From positions 3,200,001 through 3,264,000 of the forward strand of contig OZ244905.1 of the NCBI GenBank assembly GCA_965221695.1: a stretch of 64,000 bases of DNA, written 5' to 3'. This document shows, in pieces, positions 26,748 to 54,617 of this stretch (its first letter is position 1; the number at the start of each line of letters is the position of its first letter). Under the pieces are notes generated by a model that saw nothing but the letters and a program-made list of their open reading frames with translations, was not told where the DNA came from and ran no database searches. Source of the stretch: Gammaproteobacteria bacterium. GTDB lineage: Bacteria; Pseudomonadota; Gammaproteobacteria; Eutrophobiales; Eutrophobiaceae. Made by a program: the position numbers and the translations under genes.

Positions 26748-26906
26748 TTAAGGAAACTCTGATTAAGTCAGAGTTTCCTGCGATACAGGGAAGTATCGCC
26801 ACAATCAATGACGATAAGTCATTGATTGTGTGAGCACGACAAAAATCGCATTTTTGTTGTGCGTGCTCTGACAAGTCCGGGATGGACTTGTTCAGAGCTT
26901 CCTTAA
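26748..26906 (-). mobile_element. Five-hairpin MITE-like element, copy A (151 bp, 26752-26902), flanked by TTAA direct repeats
   Basis: Imperfect terminal inverted repeats GGAAACTCTGATTAAGTC / GGAAGCTCTGAACAAGTC, five internal stem-loops and homology to 54459-54613. Confidence 0.85.
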
Positions 26907-26934
26907 CTATAATTCAATTACTGGTTAGTGTCAA
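26906..26934 (-). promoter_or_regulatory. Sigma70 promoter for the riboswitch-metZ transcript
   Basis: TTGACA (26934-26929), 17 bp spacer, TATAGT (26911-26906). Confidence 0.75.
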
Positions 26935-27110
26935 ATTTTCTGTGTAAACCGGAAGTCTGGGCAAAAGGAGTCATCTTTCGGGAAATACAATATGAAGTGT
27001 CCCTTCGGGACCGGTATCTGACTGGACTCCCATTTTCATGGGAGTGGTACGGGGGAATGTCCTGACCTGTACCAATAATATTATGCTTGTGTTGCCATGA
27101 TTATGCGGGT

Positions 27111-27279
27111 TTAACCGGAAGCATCTCGATTGGTAATGAGATAATCGCGATATTGCTCCCGCAAGTGCAATTTGCTGACTTTTCCAGTTGCCGTATGGGG
27201 CAGTTGTGCAACGAAAACAACGGCGTCAGGCTTCCACCAGCTTGCCGTCGAACCAGGCCCGCAGCTCCTCAGCGATCAT
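27111..27279 (-). pseudogene. C-terminal remnant of an AlkK/DmdB-like acyl-CoA ligase, frameshifted
   Basis: AEELRAWFDGKL, then in another frame WKPDAVVFVAQLPHTATGKVSKLHLREQYRDY...*. Confidence 0.75.
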
Positions 27280-27310
27280 CACATCAATCGGTGAGATATT
27301 CGGGCTAACC
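27267..27310 (-). repeat. Second dispersed repeat family, terminal fragment
   Basis: 44-nt match with 6 mismatches to 47126-47169; minus strand TTAG-CCCGAATATCTCACCGATTGATGTGATGATCGCTGAGG. Confidence 0.7.
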
Positions 27311-27355
27311 CGTGTGGAAGCTTTCGAAGGTAAAATAATCCTGTTCATAGGCATT

Positions 27356-28507
27356 TTACAAGTCCGTCAACAGGCGCTTGGCTGATACTGCTCGTATTTT
27401 CTCGTTCAGTGGGTATGATTCCTCGCCTGCATGTATCACGATCAACTCCGTGAGTTCGAGGTCTTTTACAGCATGGCGCATTGAAGCAGTGACTGCCGGC
27501 GCCGAGGATAGCTTAATCTCGATGCCCAGTCTCTCCTTTGCTGATGGAATGAACAGGTCGAGCTCAGCGCCAGTGTGGGTTCGCCAATAATAAAATTCCC
27601 GGCCGACTCCACTCAGATGTTCCATAACCAACTCCAACAACAGCCCCTCCCAGGTACTGCCTCTTGCAGGATGTGTATCCAGGGTATCGGTATCACTGAT
27701 ACCGAGCAGGGAATGTACTAATCCTGAATCCCTGATATAAATTTTTGGCGCCTTGACCTGGCGCTTTTTCAGGTTTGCAAACCACGGGACCAGTTGCTTG
27801 ACGACCAGCGCGTCAGTAAGAATGTCAAGGTAACGGCGTACCGTCGTATCGGCGACGCCGAAAGAACGCGCAAATTCTGATGAATTCCAGACCTGGCCAT
27901 GTCGGTGAGCCAGCATCGCCCAGAAACGTCGCAGGGTTGTTCCCGATGTTTGCACACCCAGTTGGGCCAGGTCGCGTTCAATGAAAGTCCGGGTAAAGCT
28001 CTCCAACCATTCAAAGCAGTCACGGTTCGACCTGGACAGGTAGGCGCTCGGAAAACCGCCTCGGAGCCAGCGTCGATCAAGCCGGTTATTTCCCACTTCA
28101 TTCAGTCCCAGACCGCCCAGCTCGTAGTAGTTGATGCGACCGGCAAGGGACTCGGAGGACTGTCTCAACAGGTTCGGCGAGGCGCTGCCCAGAACCAGGA
28201 AACGCGCCGGTCTGGGCCTGCGGTCTGATAGCGCTCTAAGTAATGGAAACAGGTCGGGCTGGCGCTGTATTTCATCGATGATCACCAACCCCTTCAGGTT
28301 TTGCAGCGCGAGTTTTGGATCTCCTCCAAACCGGGAGAGAACTGCGGGGTCTTCCAGGTCAAAGTGGTGTGATTGTCGATTGTAGCGTTCGGCCACCTGC
28401 TTTGCCAGGGTAGTCTTACCGACCTGCCGCGGCCCCAGGATAGCGACGACCTCGAAGTTACGAAGACGCCTGATAATTTCATTGCTATGCCTGGACCGAA
28501 CAATCAT
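27356..28507 (-). CDS. AAA+ ATPase (AAA_14 + DUF4143 type)
   Basis: GPRQVGKTT, IIDEIQ, LGSAS, ESLAGR, GGFP, KAPKIYIRDSG, YYWRT..GAELD. Confidence 0.88.
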   Translation of the reverse strand: MIVRSRHSNEIIRRLRNFEVVAILGPRQVGKTTLAKQVAERYNRQSHHFDLEDPAVLSRFGGDPKLALQNLKGLVIIDEIQRQPDLFPLLRALSDRRPRPARFLVLGSASPNLLRQSSESLAGRINYYELGGLGLNEVGNNRLDRRWLRGGFPSAYLSRSNRDCFEWLESFTRTFIERDLAQLGVQTSGTTLRRFWAMLAHRHGQVWNSSEFARSFGVADTTVRRYLDILTDALVVKQLVPWFANLKKRQVKAPKIYIRDSGLVHSLLGISDTDTLDTHPARGSTWEGLLLELVMEHLSGVGREFYYWRTHTGAELDLFIPSAKERLGIEIKLSSAPAVTASMRHAVKDLELTELIVIHAGEESYPLNEKIRAVSAKRLLTDL

Positions 28508-28930
28508 ATTCTCAAGATTACCATGAAAATTCGGTAATGACCACAGATATTTCAGTGTTGCTGTAATCCGATACTATGAATTTTTTTTAGCGGCAGGGCG
28601 GTAATAACATCAGGTCGAGTGCGGCGGCTCGGAGAGATTCTTGGCTACAGCAGACGGCAGGTCCGTTCGTTCGATATATTGTTGCATATCGTTCTTTAAA
28701 AATAAGATATACAACAATAATTTCTTGGCATTCATATTCTGTCAGTAATCGCAGGCGTTCCGCCTGCCTGCGGGTGGGACGCCCACGCCCCCAGGGGTTC
28801 AGTCTGCAGGTCGTAGGCGTCAGGGGGAAGGAGGCAACATCAACACCGCATCCGTTCCTGCGTTTGAAGGCCGTCGCTACTGGCGACTTTCAATGAACGC
28901 GGCGTGATAGATGCAATTTAATATGACGGC

Positions 28931-31414
28931 TCAGAACTGTTTGCGCAGGGTTACGCCGTAGGTGCGGGTCTCGCGCAGGTAGCTAGCCAGTTTGCCGGTT
29001 TGCAACGGCACGTCGAACACGGCGGCGTGCCTATCCTTATCCAGCAAGTTGCGCGCCCAGAAGGAGATATCCAGGTCAAAGGCATCCAGCGTCAGGCCGG
29101 CGCGGACATTGAGCAGACCGAAGCCATCCTGTAGCTTGATCGGGTCGGCATTGCCGTCTGTCACGGTATTACTGCGGTGGCTGTAGTCCGCATGGACATA
29201 GCCAGTCAGGCTGTCGTTGAATGAGTGCGACAGGGTCGCGGACAGCAGCACGGTATGCTTCGGGTCACCGGCCAGGCGGTCACCGCTGCGATCGCAAAAA
29301 TTGTCCCCGGGGTTACGCTGGCCCGGGTCCGGCGTGCCGGTCAGGAACGGCGTGGCCACCCAGCAGTTAGCCATCTCGAATTCGTCGTACTCGGCATCGT
29401 TATAGATATAGGCCCCACTCAAACTCAGGCCATCGAGCGGTGTCCAGTACACCTCCAGTTCCCCGCCCTTGGCCTCCAGTTTGCCTGCGTTGCGCAGGTT
29501 AAAGCCGGTACCGGTGAAGGAATTGCTCTGGAAATCGTCAATGGTTGTGTAATGCAGCGCCAGGTTCACGCGCAGGTTGTGCTCGGGGACTACCAGCTTC
29601 ATGCCGAGCTCGACTGCGTCTGACTTCTCGGCGCCGAACACCTGGTTGAACCCCACGGGGATGCGGTCGGTATTGGCGCCGCCGGATTTGAAACCGGTGG
29701 CATAACCGGCGTATAGCAGCAGGTCATTGTTCGGGGTCCAGATCATCCTGGCGTTCCAGGTAATCTGGTCGTCCTTGAGGGTTTCATCCACATCGGGACG
29801 CGGCGATATAGCTGGCGTCAGGTAAAACCCCCAACCCGGGCGCGCGAGTTGCGCCAGCAATACCGGGTTCAGCGGCGCCAGGCCCTGGCTCGCCAGGAAC
29901 AGGTTCGTGCCTATGGCCGTGAAATCCGGCGGTGGACCAAAGGTGTCCTGATAAAAAGACCCGTTCAGTCGTTTTTTTTCATCGGAGTAACGCAGTCCGG
30001 CAGATACGCTCCACTGTTCATGCAACTGCACATCGAACTGGCCAAACAACGCCCAGGCCTCGTGGTCCTGCAGCATGACATTCAGCGCCCTGCCGCCGGG
30101 CAGCACGGCCGGGCCTGGCGGCGGGATGCGCCCGCCGGTCAACGCGGAGATCAGGCTGACCCCATTAATTAACGCGCGGAGGTCCGGGTCTCCGTTTGTG
30201 ACGAATGCCTCGAAAGCCGATCCCGGTGTAGTGGTTGTCCAGTTGTTGAGGTTCTGGTTGAAATAATACGTCCCGACCAGGTAGTCAATCCGGCCCCGGC
30301 TCCCCGACAGGCGTAACTCCTGTGAAAACATCTCCGACTCTCCGCGGTTGTAGCGCGTGATAATGTCTGCCGCATTGAAATCCACATCCGAATCGTCCGT
30401 CGTGTTGAACGTGCGATAGGCGCTGATCGCAGTAAGCGTGTCCGTGGCGCTGAGATTCCAGTTAAGCTCCGCCGACACGCCGCTGTCATCGTTCCGGGAG
30501 GCCGGCAACTGGTTCATGTGCACCACATAGTCGGTGAATTGATCTTCGCTTAGCAGTGGCACGCCCAGATTCGCCAGTAGGGCATCGGAACCCGGTCGGC
30601 CGTCAAACGAGAAATAATTGTTACGGAACGTGGCCGCAGCGCAGCATATTTCGTCGATCTCAGCATAGTCCAGGATCACGCGCAGGGACAAGTCTTCAGT
30701 AGGCGTGTACAGCAATTGCGCCCGCCCCCCGTAACGATCCCGGTCATTGAGCAGGTTACCGCCCTCACCCAGCGCGTCGACAAACCCGTCTCGGCTGGTC
30801 AGAAATGCCGTCATCCGCATCGCCAGTACATCCTCCACCAGGGTTCCTCCGAACGCGCCGTTGGCGCTGAACAGGTCCAGGTTACCATAGCTCAGTTCCA
30901 GGTAGCCGTCTGTCTCATGGGATGGCGCCACCGTGTTCAGCAGTACTGCGCCCGCGGATGAGTTGCGCCCGAACAGAGTTCCTTGGGGGCCGCGCAACAC
31001 CTCTACCCGCTCGACATCCGCCAGTTCGTTGATCAGCGAACTCTGGCGCGGCCGGTAAACGCCATCTACGTAGAGGCCGACCGAGGGCTCGAGGCCGAAG
31101 TTCTGGGAACTGGTGCCAATACCGCGTATGTTGAAGTTTGCGGTGGTGGCGCTCTGGCTCTGTCCGACACGAAGCGCCGGCGCGCTGTGCTGAAGGTCGT
31201 ATATGTCGGTGATTCCGTATTCGACCAGTTGCTCGCCGGACAGTGCAGTGACCGCGACCGGGATGTCCTGGATATTCTGCTCTCGCTTTTGCGCGGTAAC
31301 GATGATCTCTTCAAGGAGTTCCTCGATCTGCGCAAACGTCGCAAGCGGTAAAAATAATGAGAAAACGGCAATACATGCCGGCAGCCACGCTTGAATACTG
31401 GTTCTGAATAACAT
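28931..31414 (-). CDS. TonB-dependent receptor
   Basis: Signal peptide, LEEIIVTAQKREQ, VEVLRGPQGTLFGRN, C-terminal RTYGVTLRKQF. Confidence 0.93.
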   Translation of the reverse strand: MLFRTSIQAWLPACIAVFSLFLPLATFAQIEELLEEIIVTAQKREQNIQDIPVAVTALSGEQLVEYGITDIYDLQHSAPALRVGQSQSATTANFNIRGIGTSSQNFGLEPSVGLYVDGVYRPRQSSLINELADVERVEVLRGPQGTLFGRNSSAGAVLLNTVAPSHETDGYLELSYGNLDLFSANGAFGGTLVEDVLAMRMTAFLTSRDGFVDALGEGGNLLNDRDRYGGRAQLLYTPTEDLSLRVILDYAEIDEICCAAATFRNNYFSFDGRPGSDALLANLGVPLLSEDQFTDYVVHMNQLPASRNDDSGVSAELNWNLSATDTLTAISAYRTFNTTDDSDVDFNAADIITRYNRGESEMFSQELRLSGSRGRIDYLVGTYYFNQNLNNWTTTTPGSAFEAFVTNGDPDLRALINGVSLISALTGGRIPPPGPAVLPGGRALNVMLQDHEAWALFGQFDVQLHEQWSVSAGLRYSDEKKRLNGSFYQDTFGPPPDFTAIGTNLFLASQGLAPLNPVLLAQLARPGWGFYLTPAISPRPDVDETLKDDQITWNARMIWTPNNDLLLYAGYATGFKSGGANTDRIPVGFNQVFGAEKSDAVELGMKLVVPEHNLRVNLALHYTTIDDFQSNSFTGTGFNLRNAGKLEAKGGELEVYWTPLDGLSLSGAYIYNDAEYDEFEMANCWVATPFLTGTPDPGQRNPGDNFCDRSGDRLAGDPKHTVLLSATLSHSFNDSLTGYVHADYSHRSNTVTDGNADPIKLQDGFGLLNVRAGLTLDAFDLDISFWARNLLDKDRHAAVFDVPLQTGKLASYLRETRTYGVTLRKQF

Positions 31415-31823
31415 GATACCCCCTGATATAATTTCAATGCCTCAAAATAACGCTTGCAATCAGTTGAAATTGTATCCTAATATTAAGATACTACCAAAAA
31501 ACCGAATTCATGGGGGGAGGGGAGACAACCCAGCGATGCTCGCTAAGATCGGTCAGACGGATTGGATCAAAGTTAAGCGGCCTTTGACAGGCACATATTT
31601 TACTGGGGCCTCAAGGGATAAATATCTGACCTTTATATTTTGCGGGAATTGCTGGAAATAACTAACCTCAATAACAACCTGTATCGGGAAATCTGTCGTG
31701 TAATTTACGGAGACCGGATATGGCTCTCCCCTGCGGCATGGGTCACATGCCACCACAATGCAGAGACCTGATCATGAAGTTTCGGTAGATTACATTCAGT
31801 TTCACACTCAGTGGGAACATAAA

Positions 31824-32882
31824 ATGCAGCAGCAGACAAACGACTCTAAAGATAGTACTGTCCGGCCCGAATGGTTTGGCTACGCGCAGTTGGGCCTGAT
31901 ACTCCTTGTGATTGCAATTGCCTTGTACTTTGCCCGGGCGCCGGGTCGTGTCCAGCTTGACATGGCGCCTGCCCAGGTTGTGGGCGAAACCAAACCGGCC
32001 GTCAATGTCATCCGGCCGGCGCCGACCGAGCAGGCGCTGACGGTAAAACTGACCGGTTCGGTCAGGGCATACGACAAGGTGGTGGTGCGCTCTGAAGTTG
32101 CAGGGCGGGTGGTTTGGGTTTCACCCGATTTTACCAACGGTGGGTCGGTCACGGCAAACGAGGCGTTTGTCAGGCTTGATCCGGCTCGGTACGAACTTAA
32201 GGTGGAAGCGGCGGAAATGGCAGTCAGTCAAGCACAAAATACCGGCGCCGCCCAAACTGCGCTGAAACTTGCACAACTCGATCTTGCGCGTACCGAGATT
32301 TCGCTTCCCTACGATGCCCGGGTAATATCATCATCCATTTCGGTGGGCGAACTGGTTGGCCCCGTTGAAGGGCTGGACGGCGCCGCCTCAATACTGGGCA
32401 TCGTTTATCAACCCTCAATACTAGCGGTTGACGTTCCGATTGATCCGAAAGTCCTCGAATACCTCACACCCGTAATCGATCGTGCGGCAACTGTTCATAT
32501 TCGGGCGGAGACATATTCAGCCAGTGTCAATCGCATCTCATCGGTAGTTGCGCCGCAGACGCGTATGGCGTCCCTGTTCCTGAGGTTTGCGCCGGATTAC
32601 CCGCCGGAGTCGCTGCCCCTGCCGGGGTCGTTCGTCGAGGTTGAGATAGAAGGACCCGCTTACCAGGATGTCTTTGTGCTACCGGATTCCGTTCTCCAGG
32701 AAGGCGACAGTGTATGGACAGTGCAGGACGGTGTCCTGCGTTCGCTCACACCACAAGCGCTTGGACGTGTCGACACTGGACTGGTGGTGGAGGCATTCGA
32801 TGCGGGCGAGGGGATTGTTGCAGGCATTCTGCCCGGCGCCGGCGATGGCCTGGCAGTTCAGGTGGCTGAAACTTTGCAATAA
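31824..32882 (+). CDS. RND efflux periplasmic adaptor (membrane fusion protein)
   Basis: N-terminal TM, SEVAGRVVWVS, L.RTEI.LPYDARV, PGSFV.VEI.G. The start could be 31758. Confidence 0.85.
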   Translation: MQQQTNDSKDSTVRPEWFGYAQLGLILLVIAIALYFARAPGRVQLDMAPAQVVGETKPAVNVIRPAPTEQALTVKLTGSVRAYDKVVVRSEVAGRVVWVSPDFTNGGSVTANEAFVRLDPARYELKVEAAEMAVSQAQNTGAAQTALKLAQLDLARTEISLPYDARVISSSISVGELVGPVEGLDGAASILGIVYQPSILAVDVPIDPKVLEYLTPVIDRAATVHIRAETYSASVNRISSVVAPQTRMASLFLRFAPDYPPESLPLPGSFVEVEIEGPAYQDVFVLPDSVLQEGDSVWTVQDGVLRSLTPQALGRVDTGLVVEAFDAGEGIVAGILPGAGDGLAVQVAETLQ

Positions 32883-32940
32883 TAGCAAACAACCCTATCC
32901 AGGCTGTTAAAGCCCTCAATCAGACAAAACCGGTGCAATC

Positions 32941-35900
32941 ATGAAATCAGGTCTTATCGCTTATTTTGCAGGAAATCCCGTTGCCGCCTACCTGCTGATG
33001 GCATTTCTGATTATCGGCGGGTTGCTGTCCGGGCAACAACTTGCGGTGCAGATTTACCCCGAGATGGATCTCCGCACAGTGACTGTAAAGGTGCGCACGC
33101 CCGGCTCGTCTCCCCGGGAAATTTCGGAAGATATCAACCGTCGAATTGAACAGAGCATAATCGGTATCTCCGGCGCTGAGCGGGTTGTCAGCGCCGCGAG
33201 TGAAGGCCTGGGAACGGTCACGGTTGAGGTGGCAACCTTTGCCAATCCCGCCACGGTCCTGGAAGATGTCCGCGAGGCAGTGGACAGCATTGATGGTTTT
33301 CCGCCCTTGACTGCGGAACAGCCTGAAGTGGAACTTGACCAACTCGATTATGAAGTCCTGACCCTGGCCGTCTTATCCGATGTTGTCGGAGAGAGGGAAT
33401 TACGGTCTGCCGCGGAGGCGTTGCGTGATGATCTGCTGGCGTTGCCGTCCATTTCACAGGTAAAGCTGCTGGGCACCCGTGACCGTGAGATAAGTATCGA
33501 ACTGAACGAGGAGGACCTGCAGCGTAATAACCTGACCGTCAACGATATCATCTCAGTAGCGCGGAACGCCTCATTCAACATGACGTTTGGTGAGTTGCGC
33601 ACGGGTTCCGGCGGTATTGTGCTGCACACGGTCGCAAAACGGCAAACAGGCAAAGAATTCGAGAACATACCGCTGATTACGCGGCTTGACGGCACGCTTG
33701 TCATGCTTGGCGATGTGGCGGAGATTCGCGATGGATTCAGTGATGAGGATGTTATCTCCGAAGTTGATGGCGCCCCCGCAGTTTTTGTGCGGATTGACAC
33801 GGCCCGGCAGCAGTCGATTGTTGCTATGGGCGAGGAGATCAAGAACTGGCTTGCGAACTATGAAACTCCCAGCACTGTCACGGTCTCGATCTGGAACGAC
33901 CGGGCACAGCCTGCGATTGACAGGATATCGGACATTCTCGGCAATGCGTTGCTCGGCATAATACTGGTTTTCATCTGCCTTGTTCTTGTGTTCGACCTGC
34001 GCGTTGCTATCTGGATAACCGTCGGCATCCCGCTGTCTCTGATCGGTTCACTGATGTTCTTTGAACTGGCGGACATGACGCTTAACGTTGCTACCATATT
34101 CGGGTTTTTCCTGCTGATCGGGATTGTCGTGGATGATGCTGTGGTAGTGGGTGAGAGCATCGCCGCGGAACGGGAGAGTGGGAAAAATGCTCTGGATGCG
34201 GCCATTTCCGGCGCGCACGCGGTAGTGGGTCCGATCACCATCGGCGTACTGACAACGCTGTTCGCTTTTTTTCCATTCCTGTTCATTACCTCGGGCAACT
34301 ACCAGATTGTAACCGTATTCCCCTATATGGCGCTGTTCGTCCTGTTTGTGTCGCTGGTTGAAGCATTCTTTATCCTGCCTGCCCACTTGTCGCATCAGCA
34401 ACGGTGGAGCCTGCCGCCGTTAAGCCTGGTTCAAGACAGGGTCAGTGGCAGGTTGAACGAGTTCCGCGACCAGGTGGTGGTGCCGGTAGTATCCTGGTCA
34501 GTAAGAAACACTTTCATCACGCTGGCAGGCGGCATACTGCTGATAATATTGGCGCTGGCGTTGCTTCGCTCCGATATCGTCCGACTCGTCCTTTTCGATA
34601 AATCGGCCTATGCCGGCAATCATGTTCAAGCTGATATTTACCTCCCGGTCGGCGCGCCTTTTGACGCCACTCACGCTACTGCAGAACATTTCGTAGATGC
34701 CGCGCAGGCCATGAATGAAGAGCTTGGCGGAATGGCGATAAACTCGGTCAGTATGCTGGTTGGTAACGTTATGTTGCCGTCGTATATGGACCGGGACTTC
34801 AATGAGAGCCACATGGCGACGGTAAGGCTACACCTTAATGAAAAGCCGCTCCGCACGGTAACACCCCAGGAAATAGAAAGAGCATGGCGCGGGAAACTCG
34901 GTGATATTTCCTACCTGGAAAAAACTGAATTCCAGACCACACGTATGCATATCGGAGCAAGCGCCGCCTACGCGCTGAAACATGAAGATTTCGAGGTTCT
35001 GAAGCAAGCAACGGCTGAACTGAAATCCCGTATGGCCACTATCCCGGGCATTTACGGAATTTCCGACAGTTTGTCTCTCGGCAAACGGCATTTTGAGATT
35101 GCGCTTACACCGGCTGGCATTGCCGCGGGACTGTCGCCGGCAGTTGTCGGCGCGCAGTTACGCGCCAATTTCCATGGAATCGAGGTACAGCGGATCCAGA
35201 GCGGTAACGAAGAGATTAAAGTAGTAGTAAGGTATCCGCCTGATCGGCGGGGAAGTCTGCGTGAACTCGCGGAGGAGCATATCCGGCTACCCGGCAACGG
35301 CAGGGAAATCCCATTTTCCATGGTGGCGCAAATCACGGAACAACGTGAATTAACCAAGTTGGTCCGCGTAAATGGTAAGCAAACGGCTCTGCTCAGCGCA
35401 CACGCCGATACATCGGTTGTCACGCCCAGACAGGCCAGGCGTACTATCAGTCAGGAGGTCTTTCCGGAACTGCTGGCAAAGTATCCCGGTCTGAAGATCG
35501 AGGCTGACCAGGGCGCAAGAGATGAGAGAGCTTTATTGAAGACCCTGGGTTTATTGGTGCCCATAGTTCTGATTGCAATGTATGCGCTCATTGCCGCATT
35601 CCTGCGCAGCTACTGGAAACCGGTTATCGCCGTTGCCGGTATTCCCATCGCATTCTCCGGCGCGGTCCTGAGCCATTGGCTGCTCGGTTGGGATTTCACT
35701 GCCATGTCGATATTCGGTGTGGTGGGCGTCTCCGGGATTGTCGTGAATGATGCACTGGTGCTGCTGGATCGCTACAACCGGATTCGCCAGGAAGATGATA
35801 ATGTGTTTCCGGCCATTGCCGCTGCATCTGCGGCGACCCGCCATCGTTTCCGGGCGGTTCTGCTGACGAGTCTCACAACCATCCTGGGTTTGTCTCCGTT

Positions 35901-36039: not shown

Positions 36040-36072
36040 CTCCGTTTCGCAACGGGATGGGGATAAAACCGA

Positions 36073-45322: not shown

Positions 45323-46910
45323 AATTCCAGGCTAACTTCGGTGCCGAAATAACTCGGATCGGTTACCGTCGCAGCAAGATTCAGGAACGCCAAACCATTA
45401 AAGACGGTTACCTCGTTGGTAATATTTCGGCCAACAAAAGCAATGTCAAGGCCGGTATTTGCATGACGATAGCCGGCGCGCACACCGCCAATCCAGCGGG
45501 ATTCGGAGACAAACTCGACGGATTCATACAAGAATATATTTGCCTTACTTTTATAATTCCAGTCTGTGTTGAAATATAGCTCGCCGCTTTCGAGTGGCGC
45601 GGTGTAATCCAGTATGACATTGAATATCCACTCTGGCGCGAGCGGCAAGGGGTTGCCATCAACAAACACGTTGGTCACCGGTCCAAATGGCCCCGGATCG
45701 ACCGAACGGATCGGGTCCAGCGCGGTGCATGCCGGTGTACTGCCGCACCTGGATTCAGACAGCGTCTTATCCCTGATTTCCGTATTATTGTAACTCAAGT
45801 TCGAACGCAGGTGTAGCGTGCTGGAGATGGCGAGTTCAAGATCGGTTTCAAAGCCATAGCCACGAGTATTATCAATGTTAATAAGCCGATTAGTATTATC
45901 CGTTTGGCCGACGGCTGTGATTTGCTGGTCGTTGATGTCATAAAGGTAGCCGTTGATATTCCAACGCGCCCTGCCGCATTAACACTACGCCCATTACGGG
46001 AGCCGTAGGATGCGCGCAAAAAACCCTCGCGTTCATAAGTCGGTTTAACCGTGTCAATCTTGACGATGCCGGCATTGGTGTTGCGTCCGAAAAGCGTTCC
46101 TTGCGGGCCATTTAGAATTTCGACTTGGGCGACATCAAAAACCGGGATGCTTCGTAACGTGGTGCTTTCGATAGACACATCGTCCAACACCAGTGAAACG
46201 GGCTGGCTGGCATTAATATCAAAATCAGTGTTGCCAAGACCCCGGATGTAAAACTGGGGCAGGAAACGACCTGAGTTGCCGTTGACATTCAGGCTGGGCG
46301 CTCTCGCAGCCAGCGCCTTGATGCTGACGCCGCCACTCAGAATAGCGTCAAAATCCGCAGCGGGGATGGCAGTCACGGCGGCAGGGATATCCTTCAATGT
46401 CTGCTCGCGTTTTTGCGCGGTCAATACAATTTCTTCCAGCACGAACTCGCTGGTAGCGGCTTCGTTGCCGGCATTCGAGTTGTTACTGTCTGCGGTCTGG
46501 GCAGCCACTGCGGTTACGGCTGCTGCGCCTGCAAACAGGGTCAGTACACGAGAAAACCAGGGTTTGCGTTTGTTTTTTGCCATTTGCTCTGTCCTCTTCA
46601 TGCTGTTAGCGCCTGGAGCGCCATTGGTGACAATCAATACACCTCTTTTATCCACCATACCCCGGAGGCCGGTGTCCATCAGTAGCAGTCTTAAGGCCTC
46701 ATCCAATGTGAAGTCTCCCATCACCGCGTTGGTGGCAATATGGCGTACCTCGTCGTAAGGAAATAACAACGGCGTTTTCGACTGTTGAGCCAGAAGATTT
46801 AACGTCGTTCCTGCTTCTCCGGCCGGGATATCAAATTGATATCTTATGGCTTCTGCATACAACCCTACAGATGTTGACATCAATATAAGCAACATGAAGA
46901 TGCGGGACAT
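45319..46910 (-). pseudogene. Signalling-type (STN-domain) TonB-dependent receptor with a large internal deletion and frameshift near 45975
   Basis: STN and plug (GPQGTLFGRN) in one frame end at RSVNAA; a second frame resumes GRARWNINGYLYD...GYGFETD...YFGTEVSLEF*. Most of the barrel is absent. Confidence 0.82.
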
Positions 46911-47039
46911 GAGTCCCACCTTTAATTGCCCATGACATCCGGCTGCTCTGATTGTCTCCTTCGAGTCGGTCGCCTGATGAATTAAGACAGTTGCCCGATA
47001 AAAATCCGCCATAAGCTTTCGGTCGCGAGCGCCCGCGTA

Positions 47040-47169
47040 CTGACACACAAATCCGCCTGGAGCGGATTTGGACATCCGAAGAAAGCCCGAAGGGGGCGCC
47101 CCACGGATGGGGCGCATCAAAAAATCCTCAGCAATCATCGCATCAATTGGTGAGATTTCCGGGCTAGCC
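47040..47169 (-). repeat. Multi-hairpin repeat of the second family, between fecR and the receptor
   Basis: Begins at the fecR stop (CTAG-CCCGGAAATCTCACC); hairpins GCGCCCC/GGGGCGC and CAAATCCGC/GCGGATTTG; matches 27267-27310. Confidence 0.6.
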
Positions 47170-48189
47170 ATTGTCAGGGTGAAGAAAAATCCTGTCTGCT
47201 TCAGCGTGTTCTACACGCACTCCGAAGCCTTTTTGCAACGCATTGAGCAAACTGTCTATCTCACCGATGCGAAAATATCCACCAATCCGAAGCTGTTTCA
47301 GGGACGGGTCAGAGATATGGATTTCAATCGGTGTATATCTGCTGACTTCTTTTATTACCGACTCCAGCGCGTCCCCTTCGAAAATTAACATACCATCTCG
47401 CCAGGCCAGACGTTGGATGATTGTCCGGGGTTCCAGGGTTTCTATCGAATGAAGCGCTTTGTCGAATGAGCCAGATTGGCCTGCAGTCAGCGTGGCAGGC
47501 TCCTTTTCCCGCGGTGATGCAACAGGCGAGGGATTGGTTTCGTCCTCCGTTGTGCCAGACAATCGCACTACGCCTTCACTCACAGTGATTTGTATGGCCG
47601 GCTCATCCAGGCGGACAGAAAACGCAGTGCCGATTGCTGTGATTGTTCCTTTTGGCGTTGCGACGACGAAAGGTCGTTGACTGTCCGCGTGCACGTCAAA
47701 AAATGCTTCTCCCTCGTACAAGTAAACTGTCCTTCCTGCCTCTTCATAATCCACTTTCAGCTTGCTGGCTGTATTCATTCTTATGTTGGAGCCATCAGAC
47801 AGGCGCAGCGCCTTTTGTTCTCCTATGCTGGTTTCGTGAAGCTGTGATGTCCGGATTTCCGGACGGGGATAAAAGTCTACGGCAACCAATAACAGCCCAA
47901 AAAACAAAACTGCCAGGCTCGCTGCTATCGATGCCGGCGCCCAATAGCGGGCGAATACTGATTTGCCGGGCGCGATGATGATCTCGCGATAGGCGGCGAG
48001 CACGTCCAGTTTGTCCCACAGATCAGCCATACGTTCCAGCTCCTCGGCGTGAATCGGGCTCTGTTCAATCCATGCCTTAAGCGCTTTCAAATCCTGGGTG
48101 GTCATCTTCCCCGAATCAAGCTTGGCTACCCATGTACTTGCCTGTTCTCGAATCTTTGAACGAATCGGCATATCAATTACCTGTGTCAT
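47164..48189 (-). CDS. FecR-family anti-sigma/transmembrane sensor
   Basis: EQAS.WVAKL, central TM, T.IGEQ..L.LSDGS...NT.S, GEAFFDV, AIGTAFSV, AWRDG.L.F. Confidence 0.9.
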   Translation of the reverse strand: MTQVIDMPIRSKIREQASTWVAKLDSGKMTTQDLKALKAWIEQSPIHAEELERMADLWDKLDVLAAYREIIIAPGKSVFARYWAPASIAASLAVLFFGLLLVAVDFYPRPEIRTSQLHETSIGEQKALRLSDGSNIRMNTASKLKVDYEEAGRTVYLYEGEAFFDVHADSQRPFVVATPKGTITAIGTAFSVRLDEPAIQITVSEGVVRLSGTTEDETNPSPVASPREKEPATLTAGQSGSFDKALHSIETLEPRTIIQRLAWRDGMLIFEGDALESVIKEVSRYTPIEIHISDPSLKQLRIGGYFRIGEIDSLLNALQKGFGVRVEHAEADRIFLHPDNG

Positions 48190-48194
48190 GACTT

Positions 48195-48749
48195 TTATTC
48201 ATTACCTGTTTCTTGTTGAGATAGATGATCGTTTTCATCCACATAAAACTCCTTGCTTATCAGCAGTAAACCTTTGGCGATATGTTTTTCCACAGTGCTT
48301 TCGGCAATACCGAGCTGTGCGGCTATCTCCTTCTGCTTCAACCCATGGACTTTCTTCAAGATATACACTTCTCTGACACGAGGAGGCAAATTGGCAATGG
48401 CCAGTAACGCCAATTCCAGTTGCTGCTCGATGATTGCGCTGTGCTCAATGCCTTTTTCATTACCATCCGGAACCGGTAATTCTGTAATGTTCGCCAGATT
48501 GCCGGTACGCCGGTTACGCTTGCTTTCTAGCTGATTCAACGCCAGATTTTTCGCAGTCCGATACAGAAATGCCCGGGGCGACTTTATTGAGACAGAACGT
48601 TCAGCCTGGTAAGCCTTTAGAAAAGCCTCATGCAGCGTATCCTCTATATCTTCCGCAGAATCGAGGAAACGGCGCAGAAAACGGCCCAACGAAGACTTAT
48701 TCTTCAAGAAAGCGCTTGCAATGTCGTCGCGATTTTTTTCGTAATCCAT
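48195..48749 (-). CDS. ECF sigma factor (FecI-like)
   Basis: EDTLHEAFLKA, PRAFLYR.AKNLALN, LPPRVREV..L...GL...EIA..LGI..STVEKH. Confidence 0.9.
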   Translation of the reverse strand: MDYEKNRDDIASAFLKNKSSLGRFLRRFLDSAEDIEDTLHEAFLKAYQAERSVSIKSPRAFLYRTAKNLALNQLESKRNRRTGNLANITELPVPDGNEKGIEHSAIIEQQLELALLAIANLPPRVREVYILKKVHGLKQKEIAAQLGIAESTVEKHIAKGLLLISKEFYVDENDHLSQQETGNE

Positions 48750-48903
48750 TTATTTCGGATTGATAATACTGCCGGTTGTAATCAAGACAGTTGAGTTGGA
48801 TATTTCCGCTATAGGATAGTAAACCGATACTTGATTCGTAGTGTCTCTCCTATCTTCAATCTATAATCTGTATATACAGTATTAACGGAAAAGAGGCGCT
48901 TCT

Positions 48904-49158
48904 GTGGAAACGCAAGTTATTGTCCGGGTTGATTCCCAGCTTAAGAAGAAGGTTGACACTTCTGCCAGGGCAGAAGGTAAAACCGTGAGTTTTGTCGTCA
49001 GGGAACTGCTTGAGGGATATGTCAAAAGTCGGGATATGTCGTTGTATATTGGTGAACTCTGGGATCTTATCGGCAGTCGCATGAAAATGGCAGGGAGCAC
49101 ACAAAATGATGTTGAAAATGTTATCAGGGAAGCGAGGGAAAAAGCCTATCGAGGTTAG
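48904..49158 (+). CDS. Ribbon-helix-helix (CopG-like) DNA-binding protein, putative antitoxin
   Basis: QVIVRVDSQLKKKV...A..EGKTVS.VVRELL..Y; palindrome TGTATATACA upstream. Confidence 0.75.
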   Translation: METQVIVRVDSQLKKKVDTSARAEGKTVSFVVRELLEGYVKSRDMSLYIGELWDLIGSRMKMAGSTQNDVENVIREAREKAYRG

Positions 49159-49280
49159 ACAGAACGGCATTTAACGCAGGAAGAGTCCGCGCAGTTCAGT
49201 ATGCTGTCGGTGATAATTACGACTTCATTCAATCGATATAAATCAGCGCGGGCCTTATCACTGAGTCGGTAACATGCCAT
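49155..49280 (-). pseudogene. Truncated ParE-type toxin
   Basis: Overlaps the parD 3' end; MACYRLSDKARADLYRL is a ParE/RelE N-terminus, followed by unrelated sequence and a stop after 41 aa. Confidence 0.65.
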
Positions 49281-49539
49281 CTTTCCTTAATTGCTCCAGC
49301 ACTTCCTTCCTGATATCTTCCGGCGTTTGTTGGCTCAATCCGCTTTTTTCTCCCTCAATCAGAGCAAGGCGGATTGCTTCGATTCCGGTATTGCGGTTTT
49401 GCCGCTCGCGAATGAGATCACTGATCACCTCGCTTTCCGAGCGGTATTGGCCACTGGCGACCTGGGCTTTTAGCCATTCATTATGGGTATCTGTAAAGGT
49501 AATACTCTTTCTGGGACTGGCGCTGTCATTGTGAGTCAA
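49258..49539 (-). CDS. parD: ParD-family antitoxin (CC2985-like)
   Basis: KSIT.T....EW...QV.SGQY.SESEVI.DLIR...IR.ALIEGE.SG. Confidence 0.85.
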   Translation of the reverse strand: MTHNDSASPRKSITFTDTHNEWLKAQVASGQYRSESEVISDLIRERQNRNTGIEAIRLALIEGEKSGLSQQTPEDIRKEVLEQLRKDGMLPTQ

Positions 49540-49599
49540 TTAATGGTGCGACTATGCACCAGAATTGCATTTGTTGTAAACACATTACGTATAGCTCCA

Positions 49600-49731
49600 G
49601 TGGTAGAAGGGACAAACCTGACCAACGATTTCCACGCGATAAACGGTTTCCCGTCAGGTCTGGGCGGTCGCGGTTACTACATCAATACCCCGCGTACCGT
49701 GATAGGCAGGTTGAGCTATAACTTTTTCTGA
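49600..49731 (+). pseudogene. C-terminal fragment of a TonB-dependent receptor
   Basis: VVEGTNLTND...YYINTPRTVIGRLSYNFF*, with no upstream coding sequence. Confidence 0.65.
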
Positions 49732-49766
49732 TGCGGTAGAATTCTGTTTTTATAAAGGAAGTGATT

Positions 49767-51371
49767 CTATTTGCGAGGGTCAATCTCCTGCTTTTCCAGG
49801 AGCGTGATTAGTGGCTGGAGATGTTTCTCATATTTCTTCCATCTTCCGATGGAAGATTGATATATGGGTTGTCTTATCTGTACCGCGCTGGCGGTGCTGG
49901 ATGGCGCCGAACTTTTATGAAATTGCAGGCACGCGTCCTGCCAATTCAATCTGCAAAACTCTATGATGCCGTGACTGACTTCTTCCTGGCGCATCACTAA
50001 TTCTTCATACTGAATCTCCAGGATGCTTTCTCCAAGCGTTTTTTTCCAGTGTTCCATCAGCCTGTGCCATACCACGAAATACTTTGCCAGATCATTTAAA
50101 TCATAGGCGAATGGATAAGACGCGGTAAACATGGTCTTGTACATGGAAAAACATGAATCCATGGCGTTACGACTTAACGCGATGATTTTGGCATTCGGGA
50201 GCGCCGCATGTATCAGGCCGCAATACAGGTAATTTAACGGCATCTTATCGATAAACATCGGCGTATGCCCGGTTCGTGGTCGCGTTGCTTCGATATAGGA
50301 ATGCCCCAATGACTTCATGTCGATATCCAGACTGGCTTCAACCATTTCTGTCCTGGAAAGGCGTTGTCTGCCATTCATTCCAGCGATTGCTTTGATAAGC
50401 TGTGCCGCAAATTCAGTGAGTTCGCCGGCGGGATAGACGTCACTATGGTTTGCGATAATTCGTTCTACCAGTGTGGTGCCGCTGCGTGGAAGGCCGAGCA
50501 CGAAAATGGGTTCATCGGATTCATCCCCGCTCTTCAGATTCTGTAGAGCGTCGCGGGTATGAGTTGAGATGATCTTTTCCATGACTTCAATATCCTGGTC
50601 AACATCGTATTGCATATGCTGGTGTTTCAGCGCGCATGCCGAGTTGAAATATGCAAACGCGCCGTCATAGTCCTCTATGTCCTCCTTCTCTTTCCCAAGC
50701 GCAAACCGGATAAGCATTTCGTCCTGCCAATTGTCCAGGCCATCCTGCAGGAGTTGTTCCATCTCGTCTATATGATTCGATTCAAGGGTCCAATGTCCGA
50801 GATCAGAACGAATGTAATGTGCTTTGCAGTCCCTGGGATTTATACGGATTGTCTTTTCCAGATTTTGCCGGGCCTTACCCAGTTGTCCGGTCATACGCTG
50901 ACATGCGGCAAGATTATACAGGAACAATGGATTATCGGGGTCGGCGCTTACCGCTTTTTCAAAAAGCGGTAATGCTTTCAACTGCTCATCAGCAAAGGTG
51001 TAGATACTTCCCAATGAATCCAGAATTGCAGGATCAGCCGGACTGAGTCTCACTGCCTTATCAGCCGATGAGATAGCGCCGGATTTGTTGCCGGACGCGA
51101 TGTAGCAGCGCCCGAGCAGGGCCCAATAAAAGGGTTTGTCCGGTTCAAGCCTGACCGCCTGACTTGCGCATTCGACAGCGTTGTTAAGGGCGCCGCGACC
51201 AAGGTTGATCTCGCTCAGAAGATACCAGCCCCGCGGGTCGCGCCGGTACCGATTTATATGTTCGTTACAAAGCCCAATAGCATCTTGTGAACGTCCTGTA
51301 CGCCAGAGCCTGACCGCTTGTTCGTAAAGCCTGCTGCTTTCAGCAGCTTTTATGGGTTTATTCCGGAGCAA
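49767..51371 (-). CDS. TPR-containing sulfotransferase family protein
   Basis: N-terminal TPRs; PIFVLGLPRSGTTLVE, FIDKMPLN, YEELV, TASAVQIRQPIY.SSIGRW. Confidence 0.9.
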   Translation of the reverse strand: MLRNKPIKAAESSRLYEQAVRLWRTGRSQDAIGLCNEHINRYRRDPRGWYLLSEINLGRGALNNAVECASQAVRLEPDKPFYWALLGRCYIASGNKSGAISSADKAVRLSPADPAILDSLGSIYTFADEQLKALPLFEKAVSADPDNPLFLYNLAACQRMTGQLGKARQNLEKTIRINPRDCKAHYIRSDLGHWTLESNHIDEMEQLLQDGLDNWQDEMLIRFALGKEKEDIEDYDGAFAYFNSACALKHQHMQYDVDQDIEVMEKIISTHTRDALQNLKSGDESDEPIFVLGLPRSGTTLVERIIANHSDVYPAGELTEFAAQLIKAIAGMNGRQRLSRTEMVEASLDIDMKSLGHSYIEATRPRTGHTPMFIDKMPLNYLYCGLIHAALPNAKIIALSRNAMDSCFSMYKTMFTASYPFAYDLNDLAKYFVVWHRLMEHWKKTLGESILEIQYEELVMRQEEVSHGIIEFCRLNWQDACLQFHKSSAPSSTASAVQIRQPIYQSSIGRWKKYEKHLQPLITLLEKQEIDPRK

Positions 51372-51439
51372 ATTTTACTATGCCGTTGTTCAGATTAGAC
51401 CAGTTTCATGAATTAATTGCCGTCGTGACAGATGGTGTA

Positions 51440-52696
51440 TTATTTTATTATCAATTCCAGCGGCAGTTCGGAAAACTTTTCACAGCCGGTTTCCGTTACC
51501 ATGATGCTTTCACTGTAACCAATACCGTATTGCCGGTATTTCATGTTTGTCGGGGGCATGTGAAAGGTCATGCCGGGTTGCAGCTCACGTTCCTCCCCCT
51601 GGCGCAGTGATAGGATTTCACCCTCGCCCCAGTCCGGCGGATAATTGATGCCGATGGAATATCCCAGCCGGTTACGATAGTTATCTCCAAATCCAAGCCT
51701 GCGCACGAAACTGCGCACATGCTCATCACATTCATGCGATGTCCGTCCCGGCCTGATAAAAGCCAGGGCCTCACCGACGGCATCGATCAACGCCCGGGCG
51801 CAGTCAAGCATTTCCTGTGCCGGATTGCCCAGGAAGATGGTGTACATGCGCGCGCAGCAATAACGGTGTTGTGAAGCTGAAATTTCGAAGAACATTACAT
51901 CATCCTGTTTCAGCATGTTGCTGCCGCCGGTCTGGTGCGGCAGGCAACTGCGTTCACCGGCCAATACGAAAGGCGGCAGGCCCATGTATTCTCCGCCGTT
52001 TTCAAAAATGGTCTTATTGACGATGGCGTTGATGGCGTCGGCTGAGACACCGGGCGCCGAAGCGTTCCAGCCAGCTTGCATGGCCTTGTCGACGATGGTT
52101 GAAGACTTGCGCATCACTGCGATCTCTTCGTGGGATTTAATCATGCGGGCATCCCAGAGCGCTTGGGTGGCATCGGTGAACTCCGCCTGCGGCAAATCCT
52201 TGCGCAGACTGTCATGCTCCTCCACGGTGTAGTAAAAACCCTGCTTTTCCACGCCGATGCGCTTTCCCTCCAGCCCCAGTTCCAACAGTACGCCGGCTGT
52301 GACCGAAGGCGGGTGATCATCTTCTTCCACCAATACCGAACGGGTTATCCAACTGTATTCCGGGACATTGAGGATCTCATAGCTGCGGATGACGAACACG
52401 GGATCCTGATCCGGTGTAACCACGATGCAATGATATTTATAGTAACCAGGGGTTTCATAACCACAAAGGTAAGTGATATTCTCCGGGCCACGCACCAACA
52501 GCGCATCGAGTCCCTCGGCTTCCATCCGCGCCAGTATCTTGTCATAGCGGCGCTGGAATTCCTCCAGGCTGAAGGCCAGGCGGTCGCTGTGAGCAAAGGT
52601 GATGGTATGGCCGTTCGCCAGTGTGCGCGGTTGCTTCCGGACTTCCGCCTCGGTTGCAATATCATAGACGTCGATTACAGGTTTGAAGATAGCCAC
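51440..52696 (-). CDS. M24/creatinase-fold amidohydrolase, ectoine hydrolase (EutD/DoeA)-like
   Basis: FSLEEFQRR, NITYLCGY, R.IKS.EEI, LPH, FFEI, RLGYSIGINYPPDWGE, L.PGMTFH. Confidence 0.75.
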   Translation of the reverse strand: MAIFKPVIDVYDIATEAEVRKQPRTLANGHTITFAHSDRLAFSLEEFQRRYDKILARMEAEGLDALLVRGPENITYLCGYETPGYYKYHCIVVTPDQDPVFVIRSYEILNVPEYSWITRSVLVEEDDHPPSVTAGVLLELGLEGKRIGVEKQGFYYTVEEHDSLRKDLPQAEFTDATQALWDARMIKSHEEIAVMRKSSTIVDKAMQAGWNASAPGVSADAINAIVNKTIFENGGEYMGLPPFVLAGERSCLPHQTGGSNMLKQDDVMFFEISASQHRYCCARMYTIFLGNPAQEMLDCARALIDAVGEALAFIRPGRTSHECDEHVRSFVRRLGFGDNYRNRLGYSIGINYPPDWGEGEILSLRQGEERELQPGMTFHMPPTNMKYRQYGIGYSESIMVTETGCEKFSELPLELIIK

Positions 52697-52730
52697 GATA
52701 TACTCCTTGATGTCTGGTTGATTATATTTT

Positions 52731-52760
52731 GGAAGCTCTAACTTAATCTCTGAGCTTCTT
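52731..52760 (+). repeat. Degenerate terminal-hairpin remnant of the five-hairpin element
   Basis: GGAAGCTCTAA-CTTAA-TCTCTGAGCTTC. Confidence 0.55.
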
Positions 52761-52778
52761 TTTCATTATAATGCTGAC

Positions 52779-53543
52779 ATGCCTGAAACTTCCAAACTTG
52801 ATATAGATTATAACCTCGATAACGGCCCGGCAACTTACCGGATCGGTCTTATCGTGATGGATACGGACGAAACGTCCGAGTGGGATTTCCAACGATTGTT
52901 GCCCGCTGACGGCGAAGTAATATTCTATGCCACAAGGATAACGACTGTGAATCCGGTCACTCTGGACAACCTGCGCAGACATGGACCGCAACTGGCCCGT
53001 TCTGCGTCCCTGTTGTTGCCCAACGTTGATTTGGATGCGATTGTTTATAGCTGCACTTCAGGTACCGTAGCCATGGGATTTGCGGAGGTACAGGCCCAGG
53101 TTCAGCAGGGAAGACCGCAGGCGCCGGTCATCACCCCGATTACTGCCGCGATAGCAGCCTTTCGGCAACTGCGCATTGATACGATATCCCTGTTGACGCC
53201 TTATCTTGACCCGGTGAATCAGTCAATGTGTGAATTCATCGAAAAAAACGGTGTTGCTGTGAAGAATATAAGCAGTTTCTGCGAGCAAAGTGACGTGGAC
53301 ATAGCCCGCATCCCGCCTGCGGCGATTATTGAAGGGGCACGTTCATGCTATCGGCAGGGAAGTGATGCCTTGTTTATTTCCTGTACTGCCTTGCGGGCCG
53401 CCGCACAAGCGAGCAGACTTGAGGCGGAACTGGGCGTGCCTGTGCTCACCAGCAACCAGTGCATGTTCTGGCAGGCCCTGCGCACGGCCGGTTACCGCAA
53501 GCCGCTATCCAGCCATGGCCGGATACTGGAAACGTCCGGTTGA
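52779..53543 (+). CDS. Asp/Glu racemase-maleate isomerase family protein, EutA-like
   Basis: RIGLI...TD.T.E.DF, NP.T..NLR, YSCTSG, LLTPY, FISCTALRA, TSNQ. Confidence 0.8.
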   Translation: MPETSKLDIDYNLDNGPATYRIGLIVMDTDETSEWDFQRLLPADGEVIFYATRITTVNPVTLDNLRRHGPQLARSASLLLPNVDLDAIVYSCTSGTVAMGFAEVQAQVQQGRPQAPVITPITAAIAAFRQLRIDTISLLTPYLDPVNQSMCEFIEKNGVAVKNISSFCEQSDVDIARIPPAAIIEGARSCYRQGSDALFISCTALRAAAQASRLEAELGVPVLTSNQCMFWQALRTAGYRKPLSSHGRILETSG

Positions 53544-53571
53544 TCGCGCGCCTCCCGGAAGCTTCCGGTTG

Positions 53572-54345
53572 TTATTGGCCTATAGTGCGATCCCGACCGA
53601 TGATCTTCATCAGCAGTTGAGCTGGCGGACCTGCTAGAGCCCCTCCATCCACGACGATTGATTGGCCGGTAATATAGGCGCTTTCATCAGCGGCCAGGAA
53701 GTGGAATACACCGGCGATATCGTCGGTTGAACCTATGCGGCCCAACGCCGTGAGGGCATTGCTCAAGTTCTCTCCTTCATCGCCACTGCCCATGTCAGTA
53801 TCAATATAGCCGGGACATACGGCATTAACTCGGATCCTGCGCGGGCCAAGTTCCAGAGCGGACATGCTTGTCAGGCTGAGGACGGCTTTTTTCGCTGCGC
53901 TGTATACCGCAGTGCCGATCATGTTCTTGAAAGCCGCTGCTGAAGAAGTATTGATGATGGAACCGCCGTCGTTCATGTGCGCGGGGGCATGTTTCAAACC
54001 GTACAACACGCCCCACTGGTTGATGCGCGTGACTTTTTCAATCAGCCATTGTTCGGTCTCTTCGATCTTCGGGCCGATATCGCCGACGCCGGCATTATTG
54101 CAAACGATATCGAGCCTGGCGCCGAGGAAGTCGACGGTTTCAGCCAGGGCTCGAGCCAAGCTTTTTTCATTGCCGACATCGACCGTGACAAACGTTGCGC
54201 CAATTTCTTCCGCAACCCGGGCGCCATCCTCAATATCGGCGATAACAACCCGTGCGCCGGCCTGGATGAAGCGGGCGGCCACAGCCCGACCGATACCGCG
54301 CTTGCCGCCCGTGATAAACGCCGTTTTGCCTTGCAGGGAAAACAT
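53572..54345 (-). CDS. Short-chain dehydrogenase/reductase
   Basis: TGGKRGIG, CNNAG, YSAAK, RVNAVCPG. Confidence 0.92.
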   Translation of the reverse strand: MFSLQGKTAFITGGKRGIGRAVAARFIQAGARVVIADIEDGARVAEEIGATFVTVDVGNEKSLARALAETVDFLGARLDIVCNNAGVGDIGPKIEETEQWLIEKVTRINQWGVLYGLKHAPAHMNDGGSIINTSSAAAFKNMIGTAVYSAAKKAVLSLTSMSALELGPRRIRVNAVCPGYIDTDMGSGDEGENLSNALTALGRIGSTDDIAGVFHFLAADESAYITGQSIVVDGGALAGPPAQLLMKIIGRDRTIGQ

Positions 54346-54424
54346 GATTAAACCTTCCTCTATAAATTGCTGAGACGATAATTATGGGATCAGGACAGAC
54401 AACCGTTATTTTAGTTTATCATTT

Positions 54425-54453
54425 TTAACACTTTACTGGCTCCTGAGTATAAT
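54425..54453 (+). promoter_or_regulatory. Sigma70 promoter immediately upstream of element copy B
   Basis: TTAACA (54425-54430), 17 bp spacer, TATAAT (54448-54453). Confidence 0.7.
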
Positions 54454-54454
54454 A

Positions 54455-54617
54455 TAAAGGAAACTCTGAACAAGTCCATCCTGGACTTGTCAGAGTACGG
54501 AAAACAAAAATGCGATTTTTGTTTTCCTCACAATATCAATGCCTTACAGTCATTGATATTGACGATACATCCTTGTATCGTAGGAACCTCTGAGACTTAA
54601 TCTCAGAGGTTCCTAAA
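54455..54617 (+). mobile_element. Five-hairpin MITE-like element, copy B (155 bp, 54459-54613), flanked by TAAA direct repeats
   Basis: Reverse-complement homolog of 26752-26902, with the same five stems and termini. Confidence 0.85.

Follow-up and report, generated by a model that had tools for sequence, protein, structure and literature searches.

Two copies of an IS5-type miniature inverted-repeat transposable element lie directly behind sigma-70-like promoters in a gammaproteobacterial genome

The DNA analyzed here, called the window throughout, is a stretch of 64,000 nucleotides from a member of the Eutrophobiaceae (Gammaproteobacteria; assembly GCA_965221695.1, contig OZ244905.1, positions 3,200,001 to 3,264,000 of the forward strand). 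It carries two full-length copies of a small repeated element, each of which starts a few base pairs behind a strong promoter-like sequence. Copy A occupies 26752..26902 on the minus strand (151 bp) and copy B occupies 54459..54613 on the plus strand (155 bp). Both are flanked by a duplicated tetranucleotide, TTAA for copy A (26748-26751 and 26903-26906) and TAAA for copy B (54455-54458 and 54614-54617), and their limits were set by the ends and duplications found across the whole family. The copies can be aligned over about 155 nt and have the same orientation relative to their promoters, and their flanks are unrelated.

Sigma-70 hexamers (-35 and -10) with 17-bp spacing are present at both sites. 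In the consensus scan, promoter A (26906..26934, minus strand, TTGACA-17-TATAGT) and promoter B (54425..54453, plus strand, TTAACA-17-TATAAT) each match 11 of 12 consensus positions, and they are the only 11/12 sites of their regions. Read along the minus strand, the order at copy A is TTGACA, 17 nt, TATAGT, TAA and then GGAAGCTCTGAACAAG; read along the plus strand, the order at copy B is TTAACA, 17 nt, TATAAT, ATAAA and then GGAAACTCTGAACAAG. The gap from the -10 hexamer to the element is therefore 3 bp for copy A and 5 bp for copy B, and the first base of the duplicated TTAA of copy A is the final T of the promoter A -10 hexamer. An earlier sequence-only reading of this stretch had claimed that such promoters immediately precede both copies, that each copy faces its promoter with the same end, and that the promoters lie outside the element. 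The gaps and consensus matches, the aligned orientation and the unrelated flanks bear out these claims, the last of which also agrees with an age of promoter A greater than that of the insertion, as described below.

The gene downstream of copy A (25310..26506, minus strand) encodes a Cys/Met-metabolism pyridoxal-phosphate-dependent enzyme of 398 aa (PF01053, E 6.8e-139), with orthologues 83-96% identical in all five relatives examined. Directly upstream of this gene is a putative SAM-II (S-adenosylmethionine class II) riboswitch aptamer at 26670..26747 (minus strand), which begins immediately after the right-hand TTAA of the element and scores 35.4 bits against RF00521, where the gathering threshold is 36 (E 2.6e-6). 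The orthologous leaders of three of the five relatives score 36.0, 35.0 and 32.6 bits against the same model, with two unreported at E<=0.001, and the leader is nearly invariant across the five congeners and the window. The SAM-II-like aptamer occurs here in a gammaproteobacterial lineage.

Copy A is missing at the orthologous site in all five congeners (G008, G004, G001, G019 and G003). In the closest of them, G008, the empty site is TATAGTTAATATG, and this genome reads TTGACA-17-TATAGTTAATATGAG, which is the window sequence minus the element and one TTAA. Promoter A is kept in all five, with an invariant TTGACA at -35 and a -10 of the form TATxxT. Because the promoter is conserved in five congeners that all have the empty site, we take promoter A to be real and older than the insertion. 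The insertion itself looks recent rather than long retained, since copy A is absent from all five relatives and its closest genomic relative is 98% identical.

Two unrelated insertions lie on either side of promoter A: copy A is downstream and, about 10 nt upstream of the -35 hexamer, there is a further insertion of about 155 bp (about 26956-27110, minus strand). This second insertion consists of units resembling repetitive extragenic palindromic hairpins, is flanked by 11-nt direct repeats and is absent from G008; BLAST with its inner part returned about 80 hits in the genome. Farther upstream, at 27111-27330 (minus strand), the gene that G008 and G003 have ahead of promoter A can still be aligned in its last part only, and the sequence diverges beyond it. 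A gene for a DUF4143/AAA_14 ATPase (27356-28507) lies upstream of this remnant.

Copy B precedes a gene (54726..56432, plus strand) for a thiamine-pyrophosphate enzyme of 568 aa (PF02776, PF00205 and PF02775), and the divergent neighbour (53572..54345, minus strand) encodes a short-chain dehydrogenase of 257 aa (PF13561 and PF00106). A DNA search with the copy B locus matched the element alone and no flank in the relatives, and a protein search found no orthologue of the thiamine-pyrophosphate enzyme in five relatives (best match 32% identity). At this locus we also observed a 9/12 hybrid site on the minus strand (54478-54451), which would combine a -35-like TGGACT inside end 1 of the element with a -10 in the flank and which is directed at the divergent dehydrogenase gene.

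The element is small, non-coding and present in many copies. A BLAST search with copy B against the whole genome of 3,539,060 bp gave 288 hits, among them 90 of at least 120 nt and 37 of 50-119 nt. The 90 long hits were oriented and the right end was located in 85, of which 65 have the modal length of 151 bp. Copies throughout the genome carry terminal inverted repeats that begin and end GGAA...TTCC, with GGAA(A/G)CTCTGA... on the left and ...TCAGAG(G/T)TTCC on the right, and two subfamilies can be told apart by their first bases, GGAAGC (which includes copy A) and GGAAAC (which includes copy B). The flanking 4-mers are identical in 61 of the 85 copies. The duplicated tetranucleotide is TTAA in 32 cases, CTAA in 7, TTAG in 6 and TAAA in 4; CTTA, TAAG and CTAG occur twice each, and there are six singletons. 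Copies from relatives show the same feature, with identical flanking 4-mers in 30 of 53. Matches to the family came from 19 of the 22 other genomes searched within the genus and from 4 of 18 sampled outside it. An exact 28-nt end pattern was found only in records titled uncultured Gammaproteobacteria, plus one titled uncultured Enterobacteriaceae bacterium. A search of the whole window with Rfam at gathering thresholds returned no match, so the element is not a described RNA family.

Some copies stand in arrangements of their own. Two MITEs (short for miniature inverted-repeat transposable elements) of this family lie in inverted orientation around one open reading frame (ORF) of 363 aa, both in the window genome outside the window (G000:C1:47098-48507) and in G008 (L045:301-1710), a layout that resembles a composite transposon. 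The facing 28-nt matches at L045 were considered as the ends of a full-length insertion sequence (IS), and this candidate was rejected, since the matches belong to two MITE copies that enclose an ordinary ORF of 363 aa. Additionally, 15 BLAST hits in the genome belong to a repeat of about 50 bp, and five of them contain the MITE, three times in the same TTAA, once four bases further on and once at the end of the repeat. Examples on G000:C1 lie at 2265245-2265280, 829367-829402, 1981669-1981704, 1213291-1213321 and 336295-336333. Either a hot spot for insertion or co-amplification of repeat and element would account for this association. In one copy of the repeat, the repeat end is followed by an inverted repeat of its own.

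We conclude that the element is a non-autonomous IS5-type transposon, that is, a MITE. This identification follows from its inverted ends, from its Py-T-A-Pu duplication and from the likeness of its ends to those of transposase-bearing IS5-group elements. Two such elements carry the comparison. The first, in the congener G022 (L065:1033-2182), is a 1150-bp IS with CTAA and TTAA as its flanks, and each of its ends agrees with the MITE end in 15 of 19 bases. Its transposase combines PF01609 (DDE_Tnp_1) with PF05598 (DUF772), and its identity to plasmid-borne transposases annotated as IS5-family is 53-57%. The frame is broken by one in-frame TGA 33 codons past the ATG, and this copy is probably inactive. 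The G022 genome gave a single weak MITE match. The second, L155, is an annotated IS5-family IS on a plasmid with GG...CTGA(A/T)CAAG ends, which match the MITE end at 13 to 14 of 19 positions, and with a TTAA duplication. A GG start and the CTGA(A/T)CAAG core are common to the ends of the MITE, L065 and L155, and the MITE shares with the IS5 group the 4-bp duplication at Py-T-A-Pu. Unlike the IS5-group ISs, the MITE has no coding capacity, is 151 bp long and has an interior of three further hairpins.

An autonomous partner was sought through PF01609, the only transposase family searched in the window genome, and there were no matches to it there. Among the 22 congeners, 16 have PF01609 matches, and 11 of the 12 such loci that were fetched showed no MITE-like end at up to 5 mismatches, L065 being the sole exception. 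The targets listed for IS5 in the part of PMC5493358 concerned with its insertion sites, CTAG, CTAA, TTAG and so on, likewise have the form Py-T-A-Pu. The preferences differ in that the main target of the MITE is TTAA (32 of 61 duplications), whereas that of IS5 is CTAG (15 of 24 in the ISfinder table quoted in that part of PMC5493358).

The position of copies A and B raises the question of whether the family as a whole is associated with promoters. The flanks of all 90 copies, 60-70 nt beyond each end, were scored for TTGACA-16/18-TATAAT with the -10 ending 0-12 nt from the element, both by match counts and by a weight matrix. Because at least 5 copies have a flank in common, being inside another repeat, the 90 are not fully independent. 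Copies A and B take the top two places among the 90, and one further copy has an 11/12 site that reads into end 2. Promoters of 11/12 quality lie within 12 nt of 0.18% of 3968 oriented intergenic TTAA sites, which gives 0.16 expected per 90 copies where 2 were seen (P 0.011); once the controls are matched for how good the adjacent -10-like hexamer is, 0.32 are expected (P 0.04). These values have to be read in the light of the fact that the coincidence itself prompted the selection of the finding, with the 11/12 threshold being set post hoc.

The components of the promoter score behave differently. The mean score of the end-1 flank is 4.35, compared with 1.76 at plain intergenic TTAA sites, but against AA[AT]TTAA controls (n=221), whose mean is 4.12, there is no difference (P 0.97). 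The -10-like score is raised at both ends (4.50 at end 1 and 2.94 at end 2, with 2.16 in controls; P 1e-12 and 0.009), whereas the -35 score is not enriched at either (-0.60 and -0.58, with -0.97 in the intergenic TTAA controls; P 0.57 and 0.19). The AT content at -50 to -20 is not above that of controls (0.529 vs 0.549). Reconstruction of the target from 59 distinct sites gave roughly (A/T)AA-n-TTAA-n-TT, with A at -3 in 32 and at -2 in 37 of the 59, and T at +5 in 30 and at +6 in 26. A sequence of the TAAAAT-TAA type is itself -10-like. Comparison of element ends with -10 boxes against TTAA sites, which the sequence-only reading had proposed, yields a -10-like shoulder, with a mean promoter score no different from that of AA[AT]TTAA controls, and an excess at 11/12 that is lost at the 10/12 threshold.

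The distribution of copies among genes is also what free TTAA sites would give. Tandem, divergent and convergent spacers hold 46, 27 and 17 copies, with 49.5, 25.1 and 15.4 expected (P 0.75). Within tandem spacers, 29 of the 46 copies are nearer the 3' end of the upstream gene, and 33 of the 90 copies are directed into the 3' end of a convergent gene. Furthermore, none of 53 copies (106 ends) in ten other species adjoins an 11/12 promoter. Together the results indicate that the family behaves as a transposon choosing AT-shouldered TTAA sites in spacers, and they show no general link to promoters or 5' leaders. The interpretation given in the earlier reading holds in its local part, the placement of two copies behind promoters, and promoter targeting or leader selection mostly fails as a property of the family: there is no -35 enrichment, the spacer classes are as expected and no such copy is among the 53 from relatives.

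Based on these results, we favour a coincidence driven by the target and followed by tolerance, and give it a probability of roughly 70%: chance insertions fell at TTAA beside -10 boxes, and the duplication restored the -10. An IS5-group transposase acting in trans would make a 4-bp staggered cut at Py-T-A-Pu, mostly at TTAA with short A/T-rich shoulders, and so duplicate the target. The stretch from the -10 to the start is short and AT-rich and would often hold such a tetranucleotide, which would make it an ordinary target. Few other sites within a 5' region may be able to take 151 bp without breaking either the promoter or the leader. For copy A, the TTAA that was hit overlapped the last base of the -10, and the duplication rebuilt the -10 on the left and returned the SAM-II-like leader intact on the right. 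The five-hairpin module described below would now form the first ~150 nt of the mRNA, and copies A and B would both be tolerated insertions, presumably neutral ones.

Several results weigh against this reading. When both ends are counted, 3 of 180 ends adjoin an 11/12 promoter, and controls matched on -10 quality predict 0.43 (P 0.009). End 1 has a stronger -10-like signal than end 2 (paired P 0.0006), an asymmetry not expected of a symmetric target; the relatives show it in the same direction, without significance (P 0.17), and it was considered as a possible sign of orientation-specific targeting. Among copies upstream of gene starts, forward orientation is mildly favoured (36 vs 22, P 0.09), as it is in tandem spacers (30 vs 16, P 0.054). 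To these may be added two features of the method, namely that the weight matrix came from textbook frequencies and that gene positions came from a crude ORF caller (2560 ORFs, 86% coding).

The excess at strong promoters would be accounted for if the transposase preferred easily melted or melted DNA between -10 and +1, so that a TTAA beside a start were a true hot spot. Of the 46 intergenic 11/12 promoter-like sites in the genome, 3 read into an element within 12 nt, the shoulder of the target is like a -10 box, and promoter A has received a second, unrelated insertion as well. IS5 hot spots have been argued to lie in regions of stress-induced duplex destabilization (SIDD) in promoter-regulatory DNA, in the discussion of hot spots in PMC5493358. 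Against targeting of this kind stand the unenriched -35 and the ordinary AT content at -50 to -20, which have been given above, and the convergent spacers, which should be poor in promoters and are not depleted (17 vs 15.4). The excess also depends on the post hoc threshold, since at 10/12 the 180 ends give 5 cases vs 2.93 expected (P 0.16), and it is not replicated in relatives; with the 106 ends of the ten other species pooled in, there are 3 cases vs 0.68 at 11/12 (P 0.03) and 5 vs 4.6 at 10/12 (P 0.49). The excess at the very best promoters is therefore suggestive, and promoter-directed targeting as its cause is in our estimation unlikely.

Each copy folds into five consecutive hairpins when folded as a single sequence, with energies of -81.4 kcal/mol for copy A (z -15.0) and -80.6 kcal/mol for copy B (z -13.6). 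RNAalifold on 127 distinct copies, from the window genome and ten others, recovered only parts of the five hairpins, whereas the single-sequence folds show all five. Compensatory changes are found in the stems of these copies; positions 42 and 68 pair as GC in 62 copies and as CG in 49, and positions 76 and 100 as AT in 93 and as TA in 30. Judging by the -10 spacing, the very 5' end of the mRNA would consist of the element. With a start 6-8 nt past the -10, the copy A transcript would begin among the opening bases of the element and 0-5 nt ahead of hairpin 1; this placement draws on the -10 spacing and on where the match to the riboswitch model begins. We also folded the 401-nt leader of copy A (26500-26900, minus strand), and in its minimum-energy structure 8 nt of element hairpin 2 pair with the 5' strand of the riboswitch region. 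This pairing is weak, with an ensemble frequency of about 0, and the isolated element folds alone.

Such a structure at an mRNA end invites the explanation that insertions into TTAA are random and that copies at 5' ends are kept, as their hairpins would make the transcript more stable, act as an attenuator or give rise to a small RNA. The great stability of the fold, the preserved stems, the predicted start just before hairpin 1 and the forward orientation of copies upstream of genes all fit, and passages on Correia and ERIC elements in a review (PMC10969869) describe effects of these MITEs on mRNA processing and stability. Selection for leaders has to contend with the fact that just 2 or 3 of the 90 copies stand behind a strong promoter and that most tandem-spacer copies lie closer to the 3' end of the gene before them. 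Moreover, copy A appears recent, the orientation biases are not significant and conservation of the hairpins may equally serve transposition. Taken together, these points make retention of the copies as leaders improbable.

A further explanation would dispense with the flanking promoters. Copy B contains a promoter-like site of 9/12 matches (54553..54581, plus strand, TTGATA-17-TATCGT) near end 2 and directed out of it, and if this outward site were the one that drives the genes, the element would act as a mobile promoter and the promoters in the flanks would be irrelevant. The equivalent site in a tandem pair of copies scores 11.2 bits, the forward-orientation bias upstream of gene starts points the same way, and Correia and other MITEs carry promoters according to the portion of PMC10969869 that treats them. 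In copy A, however, the corresponding -10 is TATCGC, without the key final T, and the consensus scan listed no promoter-like site inside that copy. In addition, more than a third of all copies (33 of 90) face the 3' end of a convergent gene. We regard a mobile promoter as very improbable.

A bolder proposal would join targeting to function. An IS5-type transposase would be drawn to melted DNA between -10 and +1, MITEs would accumulate at starts, and the first hairpin would form a cap-like stem at the 5' terminus that alters mRNA life, including that of the SAM-II leader. We offer this as a long shot. Coincidence with tolerance remains the reading that we prefer, and overall the family looks like ordinary mobile DNA at AT-rich TTAA sites.

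The importance of these observations is modest; they document a family of IS5-type MITEs in a genus of uncultured Gammaproteobacteria. Copy A is a clean natural case in which an element has recently entered the very gap that separates a conserved -10 from a putative riboswitch, with sister species that have empty sites, and the pair of window and sister species could be used as a ready comparison for a structured 5' extension on a putatively riboswitch-controlled mRNA. If the excess at strong promoters is true, the idea that IS5-type elements read DNA melting extends to a MITE; as a general rule this is not supported by the tests made here.

Correia elements, with which the present family shares its size class, differ from it in end sequence and target. 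MITEs that sit between a promoter and an operon and act on the transcript have already been documented, as related in the sections of PMC10969869 drawn on here. At mtrCDE of Neisseria gonorrhoeae, a Correia element of ~150 bp likewise stands just downstream of the promoter, between it and the operon, where it is co-transcribed and has regulatory consequences (same sections of PMC10969869). Correia elements have a documented site for integration host factor (IHF) and documented cleavage by RNase III (PMC10969869, in the account of Correia). ERIC elements in Yersinia transcripts resemble the present family in being hairpin-forming MITEs; they are co-transcribed and alter mRNA decay, with a documented effect at 3' ends through an RNase E site (PMC10969869, in the account of ERIC), and their sequence is unrelated to that of the present MITE.

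The E. coli IS5 hot spots at glpFK, bglGFB and flhDC provide a parallel for the choice of site, as an IS5-type element is found there too on CTAA or TTAA in promoter regions. These hot spots lie in SIDD promoter-regulatory DNA, and melting was proposed as the guide in the portion of PMC5493358 that deals with them. The E. coli sites shown there are upstream of the operons, in the case of bgl upstream of the promoter, and the insertions activate silent operons (same portion of PMC5493358). In contrast, the insertions described here would lie between the -10 and +1, and their flanks at -50 to -20 are no richer in AT than controls.

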